From positions 6,676 through 70,675 of the forward strand of contig CAYNNZ010000003.1 in NCBI GenBank assembly GCA_964398815.1: 64,000 nucleotides of DNA, given 5' to 3'. Position numbers and translations under genes: made by a program. The notes below the pieces were generated by a model, which was not told the DNA's origin, did not search any database, and saw nothing but the letters and a program-made list of their open reading frames with translations. Below are positions 6,859 to 8,356 of the stretch, piece after piece. The first letter of the stretch is position 1. Each line of letters opens with the position of its first letter. The DNA is from an uncultured Candidatus Saccharibacteria bacterium (GTDB lineage: Bacteria > Patescibacteriota > Minisyncoccia > Phycocordibacterales > Phycocordibacteraceae).

Positions 6859-8320
6859 AATTAGAGTTTGATCCTAGCTCAGGATGAATGCTGGCGGCGT
6901 GGATAAGGCATGCAAGTCGAACGGTCCGCAAGGACAGTGGCAGACGAGGTAGTAACACGTAGGTACTCCCCCCGAAGTCTGGAATAGCTCACCGAAAGGT
7001 GAGGTAATACCGGATGGTCCCGAAAGGGTAAAGTTTTTTCGCTTCGGGAGAGGCCTGCGTAATATCAGCTTGTTGGTGAGGTAATGGCTCACCAAGGCTA
7101 CGACGTTTAGGGGCGCTGAGAGGCGGACCCCCACCGATGGGACTGAGACACGGCCCATACTCCTACGGGAGGCCGCAGTCGAGAATCTTCCGCAATGGGC
7201 GAAAGCCTGACGGAGCGACGCCGCGTGCTGGACGAAGTGCTTCGGTACGTAAACAGCTTTTATGTGGGATGAAATTATTGACAGTACCACATGAATAAGG
7301 GGCTCCTAACTCTGTGCCAGCAGGAGCGGTAATACAGAGGCCCCAAGCATTATCCGGAATCACTGGGCGTAAAGGGTGTCAAGGCGGCTATATTAGTCGT
7401 TCGTTAAATCCGTGGGCTCAACCTACGGTCTGCGAGCGAAACGGTATAGCTAGAGGTTGGAAGAGGTGCGTGGAACTCACGGTGTAGGGGTGAAATCCGT
7501 TGATATCGTGGGGAACACCAAAGGCGAAGGCAGCGCACTGGTCCAAATCTGACGCTCACACACGAAAGCCAGGGTAGCGAACGGGATTAGATACCCCGGT
7601 AGTCCTGGCCCTAAACGCTGCTCGCTCGTTCTGCGGAGTATCGACCCTCTGTGGGACTAAGCTAACGCGGTAAGCGAGCCGCCTGGGTAGTACGATCGCA
7701 AGATTAAAACTCAAAGGAATAGACGGGGACTCGCACAAGCGGTGGATCATGTGGCTTAATTCGTCGATAAGCGAAGAACCTTACCCAGGCTAGAAACCAA
7801 GCTGCATCTCACCCGAAAGGGAGAGAGCCTTCGAGGGTGCTTGGCAGGTGATGCATGGTTGTCGTCAGTTCGTGGCTTGAGCTGTTCCCTTCAGTGGGGT
7901 AACGAACGCAACCCACGTTGTCTGTTATATATGTCAGGCGAGACTGCCCCCTCACGGGGGAGGAAGGTGTGGATGACGCCAAATCAGCATGTCCCTTGAT
8001 GCCTGGGGCTGCACACGTGATACAATGGGTGGTACAGAAGGACGCAATACCGTAAGGTGGAGCAAATCCCAAAAACCACCCCCAGTACGGATCGAGGTCT
8101 GCAACCGACCTCGTGAAGCCGGAATCGCTAGTAATCGTAGGTCAGCCATACTACGGTGAATACGTTCTCGAGTCTTGTACTCACCGCCCGTCAACTCAAG
8201 GAAGTTGGGGGTGCCCGATATCTTGCTTTACGCAGGACTACGGCAAACTCAATGACAGGGAGTAAGTCGTAACAAGGCACGGCTAGCGGAAGCTGGTCGT
8301 GGAACATATCCAATCGGAAT
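6859..8320 (+). rRNA. rrs: 16S ribosomal RNA (complete, divergent; about 1.46 kb)
   Basis: Landmarks: AGAGTTTGATCCTAGCTCAG (6866); ACTCCTACGGGAGGCCGCAG; GTGCCAGCAGGAGCGGTAATAC (7314, mismatches to the universal 515F site); GGATTAGATACCCCGGTAGTCC (7586); AACGAACGCAACCC (7900); CTTGTACTCACCGCCCGTCA (8170); AAGTCGTAACAAGG (8265); helix-45 with a GGAA loop. The 3' boundary is approximate. Confidence 0.9.
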
Positions 8321-8356
8321 CGAGATCTTCGAAAGAAGACTCTTGTCGATCTGTTC

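Follow-up and report, generated by a model that had tools for sequence, protein, structure and literature searches.

A 16S rRNA tail without the anti-Shine-Dalgarno core in a Kaiserbacteria-type bacterium, and the start signals that may replace Shine-Dalgarno sites

The stretch of 64,000 nucleotides from contig CAYNNZ010000003.1 analysed here (the window) carries a full-length 16S rRNA gene whose 3' tail lacks the core of the anti-Shine-Dalgarno (anti-SD) sequence, CCUCC having become UAUCC. Its rRNA sequence assigns the window to a Kaiserbacteria-type organism within the Parcubacteria (Paceibacteria, candidate phyla radiation), and the lineage to which it belongs is without the anti-SD core. 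Shine-Dalgarno (SD) motifs are not enriched before its genes, and two other signals are: a promoter-like -10 hexamer lying a few nucleotides before the ATG, and an upstream gene's stop codon that overlaps or adjoins the ATG. Taken together, these signals make it probable that the first genes of transcription units in this anti-SD-less clade are initiated on leaderless mRNAs and that downstream genes are reached by reinitiation; where transcription starts, where the mature 16S rRNA ends and how initiation proceeds are all things that we infer from the sequence.

The 16S gene matches the bacterial small-subunit rRNA model end to end, with a score well above the gathering score (Table 1). Its 3' part was realigned separately with the structure-aware covariance model of Infernal, and in that alignment the single-stranded end of the model, GGAUcACCUCCUUu, lines up with GGAACAUAUCCAAU, the posterior probability being maximal at every position. 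An earlier note on this DNA had read CACCUCC as changed to CAUAUCC on the strength of its own placement of helix 45; the placement is correct, the structure-aware alignment gives the same reading, and no CCUCC is revealed by it. Beside the core, the tail differs by U to A at 8304 and by UU to AA at 8312-8313. With no CCUCC in a tail of about 13 nt, this molecule falls among the 16S rRNAs described as lacking an anti-SD (Amin et al., 2018; category iv of Estrada et al., 2024). A true, CCUCC-bearing 3' end might be sought further downstream, or helix 45 might be thought mis-assigned, as insertions are frequent in the 16S genes of the candidate phyla radiation and large hairpins lie 3' of this gene at 8355-8407 and 8547-8605. 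The alignment, however, runs throughout model positions 1-1533 with maximal posterior probability over helix 45 and the tail; CCTCC does not occur on the + strand between 5598 and 10137, which covers the stretch between the 16S gene and the next genes; and at least 119 relatives continue after the tail with a trailer hairpin and GUCGAU, never with CCUCC. A hidden end or a misalignment is effectively refuted.

The distribution of the tail was addressed with two scans. In GTDB, with one genome per species and GGAAGCTGNTCGTGGAACATAT as the query, at least 119 genomes were matched; the tail is identical in all of these species-level genomes and persists to about 89% 16S identity, the window's own 16S being 89-95% identical to theirs. 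The titles of the matched genomes include Candidatus Kaiserbacteria, Candidatus Paceibacterota, the Parcubacteria group (for example GW2011_GWA1_56_13 and C7867-004) and Minisyncoccia. Among metagenome contigs, the query AAGTCGTAACAAGGCAC, made up of the end of helix 44 and the three bases with which this helix 45 opens and leaving the tail unconstrained, matched at least 120 contigs. The same tail as in the window is found in five metagenome contigs, and the canonical tail GGAUCACCUCC in only about 8 of 120, among the matches listed; the tails of the remaining listed contigs include GGAUUAAUUCCAAUUGGA, GGAAUAAUUCAAUUUGAA, GGAAUAUUUCAAG, GGAUCAAUUAAAC, GGAUCAUUUUUUU and the window's GGAACAUAUCC. 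The variant tail is therefore shared by related species, and sister lineages bear different non-canonical tails. Found in several metagenome contigs as well as in at least 119 species-level genomes, the tail cannot be put down to a sequencing error. The same evidence bears on the idea of a degenerate or non-functional rRNA copy, or of an assembly error, in an organism whose real ribosome has a normal anti-SD. That the 16S gene is unlinked to any 23S gene within the window would suit such an idea, but the gene is full-length and high-scoring, its helix changes are compensated, the SD-less genes of the window agree with the altered rRNA, and the same tail turns up in several metagenomes and in at least 119 genomes that were assembled independently, where identical mistakes across studies are implausible (an argument made also by Amin et al., 2018; PMC6107228). 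We give this idea next to no credence.

Membership of the window in the Kaiserbacteria and Paceibacteria is indicated by 16S similarity together with shared rRNA signatures. The best 16S match among the genomes listed (JBLNCF010000015.1) is 95.3% identical, and several relatives, including a metagenome-assembled genome titled Kaiserbacteria, are at 93-94%. A second signature lies in the 530-loop pseudoknot, which reads UCC/GGA at 7304-7306 and 7323-7325 (E. coli 505-507 and 524-526, normally GGC/GCC); the change is fully compensated and falls within the 515F primer site (CAGCAGGAGCGGTAA). This variant is present in 45 of 46 same-tail relatives, the other one having UAC/GUA, and sister lineages have UGC/GCA, such that every pseudoknot variant seen retains pairing; no match to the variant was found in the viral contigs scanned. 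The window encodes SecDF, SecA, MurB/C/D and Obg, besides many glycosyltransferases, a VirD4-like ATPase and a giant open reading frame (ORF), a gene content consistent with the candidate phyla radiation. The genome with the best 16S match was deposited as "Bacillota bacterium," and "uncultured Candidatus Saccharibacteria" is the title of many same-tail genomes; in both cases metagenome-assembled Parcubacteria have probably been given the wrong taxonomic label.

Gene starts were assigned for 43 window genes as the first ATG compatible with the end of the upstream gene or, for murD, as the ATG consistent with its orthologues. SD sites were scored as GGAG, GAGG or AGGA at -20 to -5, with the 1896 non-start ATGs of the window as background, and 49 kb of E. 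coli K-12 with 65 annotated coding sequences, handled identically, served as the control. These 4-mers precede 6 of the 43 window starts (14%, with a background of 14.5%), whereas in E. coli the corresponding figures are 72% and 8%. The mean duplex energy with the canonical tail tells the same story, at -3.97 kcal/mol for window starts and -4.55 kcal/mol for the background, as against -7.2 and -4.2 kcal/mol in E. coli. The starts without an SD include those of essential native genes (secA, murB/C/D, obg). Across the loci flanking the 16S gene in the at least 119 relatives, SD 4-mers stand before 16.9% of 403 high-confidence ATG starts, with 13.3% in the background. Neither the window nor its relatives show the enrichment of SD motifs that anti-SD-less organisms are expected to lack, and the earlier note was right in holding that nearly all gene starts are SD-less; the start contexts that it quoted, at 2535, 3994, 12572, 20731 and 21723, are present as written. 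Counting an SD before any start codon in the first 50 codons was also tried and dropped, as it gave about 42-45% in every set and no discrimination.

The window contains the pentamer CCTCC/GGAGG 196 times, as against 123 +/- 11 times in shuffles that preserve dinucleotides, and so shows no avoidance of SD-like sequences within its genes. Such non-avoidance fits the absence of an anti-SD, although codon usage could be an alternative cause.

A lineage with a changed tail might have changed its SD to match, UAUCC then serving as a variant anti-SD for GGAUA-type motifs upstream of genes. The conservation of the tail throughout the clade would suit such co-evolution, and GGAU, the complement of AUCC, is part of the TAGGAT hexamers before murD. 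Yet motifs complementary to the native tail precede 1 of 43 starts and 5.6% of controls, and the native-tail duplex energy is weaker at starts than in the background (-2.68 and -3.08 kcal/mol); at the position of the murD hexamer other genes have TATACT, TAGAGT or TACAAT, whose common feature is TANNNT, a -10 box, and not GGAU. Amin et al. (2018; PMC6107228) likewise saw no variant tail matched by a variant SD. A co-evolved pair is accordingly very improbable, and the window resembles the anti-SD-less organisms also in having no compensating motif.

In place of an SD, the hexamer TANNNT is found 5-9 nt before the ATG at 13 of 43 window starts (30%), compared with 2.7% of controls (Fisher p = 3e-10); at such spacing it occurs before 2 of 65 starts in the E. 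coli control. The window hexamers are mostly TATACT, TATAGT or TACAAT. When the starts of relatives and window are pooled (439 starts), TATACT is the commonest hexamer and the spacing has a peak at 6 nt (19.4%, compared with 0.7%), flanked by shoulders at 7 and 8 nt. The TATACT of the promoter-like site before the 16S unit is the same hexamer as that found before protein-coding genes. Among MurD, MurC and RsmI-like orthologues the hexamer and the 6-nt gap are kept across species and the spacer sequence is variable; the hexamer and spacing of the MurD orthologues place the start of the window's murD at 9962, and the translation from there, MDTRAYFAGKKITV, agrees with the MurD orthologues of relatives.

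In leaderless translation a 5'-terminal start is expected to require AUG. The hexamer stands before 21.2% of the ATG candidates for a start, as against about 2% of the GTG or TTG candidates, and this tie to ATG, and not to GTG or TTG, is expected from recognition of a 5'-terminal AUG. The tie is a test of our own; in GeneMarkS-2 the mark of a leaderless bacterial genome is a Pribnow box at 6-8 nt from its gene starts (PMC6028130), and a box at this distance is present in the window and in its relatives.

The second enriched signal is the proximity of stop and start codons. Nineteen of the 43 starts (about 44%) lie at -14 to +5 nt from a same-strand upstream stop codon, the overlap or closeness by which termination-reinitiation is recognized, and only 2 of these 19 have an SD-like 4-mer. 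Overlaps of the form ATGA occur five times and TAATG twice, and many junctions read TAGNNATG or TAANNATG. The earlier note had pointed to ATGA and TAATG overlaps and to TATACT-like boxes near ATGs, and had offered coupling or leaderless initiation as alternatives to the SD. Overlaps and boxes are present as described, the two proposed signals are those found to be statistically enriched, and the sequence thereby lends weight to both suggestions. Classified by the two signals, 12 of the 43 starts are leaderless-like, 17 coupled, 2 both and 12 neither; SD 4-mers precede 2 of the 17 coupled starts.

On this evidence we propose that a first gene would be preceded by a TATACT-like -10 hexamer 6-8 nt before its ATG, so placed that transcription would begin at or beside the A of the AUG and give a leaderless mRNA, to whose 5'-terminal AUG the ribosome and initiator tRNA would bind directly. 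At a downstream gene the ATG overlaps or closely follows the upstream stop (ATGA, TAATG, TAGNNATG), and a terminating ribosome would restart on the spot, with no need of an SD. Several points weigh against this proposal. A -10 box beside an ATG predicts a leaderless mRNA and falls short of proving it; in-frame hexamers beginning with TAG slightly inflate the 6-nt peak, other in-frame spacings reaching just 2-4%; the gene starts were assigned by us and not by an independent gene caller; the loci of the relatives all flank the 16S gene, so that orthologous genes were counted repeatedly; and, of the 12 starts in neither class, 4 have SD-like 4-mers. These 12 starts imply either another leadered, SD-independent route (through protein S1 or unstructured leaders, for example) or wrong start calls. 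The three complementary bases that remain in the tail (UCC) could at most give marginal pairing with SD-like 4-mers.

If leadered, SD-independent initiation of the kind known in Bacteroidota, with unstructured or A-rich leaders and protein S1, were the main route, the TATACT boxes would be promoters of short-leader mRNAs, or coincidental. It is a frequent explanation for organisms in which the SD goes unused (see the discussion in Amin et al., 2018; PMC6107228), and it would accommodate the 12 of 43 starts with neither a -10 box nor an adjacent stop, as well as certain hexamers that lie 9 nt or more away. Against it stand the sharp 6-nt spacing peak and the tie of the hexamer to ATG and not to GTG or TTG, both of which would be predicted by recognition of a 5'-terminal AUG but not by leader scanning, and the absence of an A-rich, Kozak-like pattern from the positional frequencies in the window and the relatives. 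We consider it unlikely as the main route, though a leadered route could serve the unclassified minority of starts.

Whether SD-independent initiation preceded the loss of the anti-SD can be glimpsed in seven relatives with the canonical tail, GGAUCACCUCC. Two of their 10 high-confidence starts have an SD and 3 of the 10 a -10 box adjoining the ATG, which hints that SD-independent initiation is older than anti-SD loss, a sample of 10 starts being far too small for more.

One gene of the window does have a clear SD-like site. According to the earlier note, GGAGG-type sites were confined to GC-rich, presumably foreign genes, whose poor expression the loss of the anti-SD would explain. The GC content of window genes is, however, unimodal at 55.1 +/- 2.8%, with a single outlier (5468-6598, 63.5% GC) directly upstream of the 16S gene; the AGGAGA before its ATG is the best SD-like site of the window and the only clear one at proper spacing. 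Its 376-aa product has no Pfam match, and the gene has no counterpart in the 16S loci of the at least 119 relatives. The sole homologue detected among 5.8 billion proteins, a distant one (41% identity), is encoded in GCA_903644105.1, at 664-1551 of the locus analysed, upstream of a same-tail 16S gene that is followed by PrcB_C and Mur ligase genes; there the gene has a GC content equal to that of its genome and AAGGAG upstream. An AGGAG motif thus stands 6-9 nt before the ATG in both homologues (n = 2), in spite of organisms without an anti-SD. The gene looks lineage-specific rather than imported: a foreign origin is not evident, its only homologue being syntenic in a relative, and the idea of poorly expressed foreign, SD-dependent genes, which would rest on this one gene, is unsupported.

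If the tail no longer pairs with mRNA, its conservation invites another explanation, and the sequence downstream of it offers a lead. The 3' trailer is conserved in the at least 119 relatives (Table 1): beyond the search pattern, CC, a variable loop of 4-5 nt, GGAA and, later, GUCGA are near-invariant, and in the trailer hairpin, whose loop is usually GAAA, 7 of the 13 pairs predicted have changed in a compensatory manner. Among 43 tail variants, complementarity is higher between a tail and its own trailer than between swapped partners (permutation p = 0.003); examples of such tail..trailer pairs are UCC..GGA and UUCA..UGAA and, in canonical relatives, CUCC..GGAG. The tail UCC may therefore pair with the trailer GGA, and the trailer is possibly a processing signal. 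These helices are merely 3-5 bp long, at about -1 to -3 kcal/mol, a 2-nt loop in two relatives prevents the UCC/GGA mini-hairpin from folding, and RNAalifold favours other pairings (GGA/UCC within the tail, AUCGG/UCGAU around the hairpin), such that the mini-hairpin is put forward as a lead only. A search of leader and trailer for an RNase III-type processing stem was uninformative. The corresponding mechanism, again a lead, would be that selection on the tail persists, after the loss of its SD function, through a conserved structure for 3' processing of the pre-rRNA; the altered tail would most simply be retained for its pairing, or joint recognition, with the structured trailer during that processing. 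A bolder proposition, which we regard as speculative and rather doubtful, is that the Kaiserbacteria-clade tail (GGAACAUAUCC), which in every case precedes a loop, GGAA, a hairpin with covarying stem and GNRA loop, and GUCGAU, is a conserved element with a new role rather than a remnant in decay, the mRNA exit platform having been rebuilt around a different function; processing or quality control of immature 30S subunits, or recognition of the 5'-terminal AUG, would be candidates for that function.

The features discussed are collected in Table 1. No 23S gene was found within the window with Rfam, and the 16S gene looks like a stand-alone unit, unlinked from 23S. The second of the two long hairpins 3' of it is followed by TTTTG and has the appearance of a terminator, and the 28-nt core shared by the two has no further copy within the window. 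Between this terminator-like hairpin and the tRNA-Ile gene, an ORF of 73 codons on the - strand (8605-8826) would encode a very basic peptide (...RKVYVQRISSIEDKLKRHRRKARIWRRAVRRLAEEL...); a - strand terminator-like hairpin (8820-8806) lies within the 5' end of this candidate ORF. The giant ORF, of more than 4605 codons on the + strand (50183-64000), runs past the end of the window and has a negative GC skew throughout.

Table 1. Positions in the window of the rRNA elements, start signals and neighbouring features discussed in the text.
Feature	Position	Strand	Basis or remark
secD/secF junction: TAG, CCT, ATG	2529-2537	+	one of the 19 stop-start junctions spaced -14 to +5 nt
AGGAGA, 6 nt, ATG 5468; 376-aa ORFan gene, 63.5% GC	5453-6598	+	directly upstream of 16S
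Promoter-like site of the 16S unit: TTGACC, then TATACT (6694-6699) or TACTAT (6696-6701)	6673-6701	+	consensus scan and sequence reading
16S rRNA gene, 1459 nt, full length	6856-8314	+	Rfam RF00177, 1371.5 bits (gathering score 50), model positions 1-1533
Helix 45: CACGGCUAGC, GGAA loop, GCUGGUCGUG	8278-8301	+	Infernal structure line, maximal posterior probability
16S 3' tail GAACAUAUCCAAU; CCUCC-equivalent UAUCC (8307-8311)	8302-8314	+	aligned to GAUcACCUCCUUu
Conserved 3' trailer: CGGAAU, GAAA-loop hairpin (8321-8345), GUCGAU (8345-8350)	8315-8350	+	at least 119 relatives
Two long perfect hairpins sharing the 28-nt core GGTGAGTCRGTCCTCGGACRGACTCACC	8355-8407 and 8547-8605		3' of 16S
tRNA-Ile(GAU)	8943-9018		downstream of 16S
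Leaderless-type start: TATACT, 7 nt, ATG 9395, PrcB_C-domain gene	9382-9397	+	hexamer scan
Leaderless-type start of murD: TAGGAT, 7 nt, ATG 9962	9949-9964	+	orthologue comparison
Leaderless-type start: TATACT, 7 nt, ATG 13510, VirD4/TraG-like ATPase	13497-13512	+	hexamer scan; Pfam
TAATG overlaps	16266-16270 and 42114-42118		sequence reading
Leaderless-type start: TACAAT, 7 nt, ATG 17508, glycosyltransferase	17495-17510	+	hexamer scan
ATGA stop-start overlap	18512-18515	+	sequence reading; ATGA also at 20731, 22112, 36051, 37721
Leaderless-type start: TATACT, 6 nt, ATG 28471, glycosyltransferase	28459-28473	+	hexamer scan
Leaderless-type start of secA: TATAGT, 8 nt, ATG 43611	43597-43613	+	hexamer scan
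Leaderless-type start: TATACT, 6 nt, ATG 48680	48668-48682	+	hexamer scan

Loss of the anti-SD within the Parcubacteria has been described before. Tsurumaki et al. (2022; PMC9297842) detected the anti-SD motif in just 48% of Parcubacteria and found the anti-SD-less lineages to overlap the group without ribosomal protein uL1; Amin et al. (2018; PMC6107228) identified 128 taxa without an anti-SD, which are also SD-less and never have a matching variant SD. In Estrada et al. (2024; PMC10783764), the SD-scarce, CCUCC-less category iv includes Campbellbacteria, Wolfebacteria, Peribacter and SR1, and several Parcubacteria-group genomes without CCUCC and SD are listed there and by Amin et al. (2018). 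The organism of the window belongs to the same superphylum and, like these, has an intact helix 45, a 13-nt tail without CCUCC and no SD. Of the published tails, as far as the lists were compared, one (GAAUAUUUCAAAAUG, Campbellbacteria) is a near-match to a tail of the metagenome scan (GAAUAUUUCAAA) and another is exact (GAUCACUACAUU, Yanofskybacteria), whereas the Kaiserbacteria-type tail GAACAUAUCC is absent from the portions compared, including that of the table of Estrada et al. (2024), in which tail types recovered here from sister lineages do appear. The earlier note's suggestion of a lineage that has lost its anti-SD is confirmed as to the loss, and the novelty is smaller than it had assumed, loss in a subgroup of Parcubacteria being published. 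What is added here is one further tail variant, specific to its clade, together with a description, from sequence, of the replacement signals: the papers on anti-SD-less Parcubacteria did not identify what replaces the SD, whereas the -10 signal and stop-start coupling are quantified here, and no literature linking Parcubacteria or Patescibacteria to leaderless initiation was found in the searchable library.

Comparison with better-known systems sets the organism apart from each of them. Group C of GeneMarkS-2 (Actinobacteria, Deinococcus-Thermus) has a Pribnow-like box 6-8 nt before the start in about 30% of genes, as here (PMC6028130), but it retains CCUCC, and an SD for its leadered or operon-internal genes; in the window the anti-SD is lost, internal genes are SD-less and the overall SD frequency equals the background. 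The organism is group C-like for its first genes, yet not a typical member. The Flavobacteriia and other Bacteroidota also initiate independently of the SD genome-wide, their anti-SD being sequestered or lost, and some members have a mutated CCUCC; their mRNAs are leadered and A-rich upstream, whereas here CCUCC is absent rather than kept and sequestered, no A-rich signature at -1 to -6 was found beyond the -10 box signal in the starts of the window and relatives, and a -10 box adjoining the ATG dominates. In reduced endosymbionts (Carsonella, Hodgkinia, Nasuia) and in mitochondria the anti-SD was lost in a small, reduced genome, as here; mitochondrial mRNAs are, moreover, largely leaderless. 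The window differs from the endosymbionts in not being AT-rich (55.7% GC), and its tail is conserved across a large free-ranging clade and not eroding in a host-bound lineage. Termination-reinitiation is said to have been described in archaea and bacteria by Huber and colleagues in 2019; the overlaps (ATGA and TAATG) and the short gaps (1-5 nt) of such systems have their like at about 44% of the window's starts, which are candidates for such coupling.

Nothing is overturned by these findings, and they have practical consequences for work on this clade. Starts will be placed wrongly in these genomes by gene callers that look for ribosome-binding-site motifs, that of murD being an example; SD-dependent initiation is not to be assumed in the heterologous expression or engineering of such genes or organisms; and the 515F primer site of the 16S rRNA does not have the universal sequence. 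For the biology of the clade, promoter-abutted ATGs together with stop-start coupling offer a coherent, sequence-based answer to the question of what replaces the SD in a large uncultured group, and, if the tail has indeed taken on a new role and starts are almost wholly leaderless or made by reinitiation, the Kaiserbacteria-type organisms would be free-ranging bacteria whose start selection is mitochondria-like or archaea-like.

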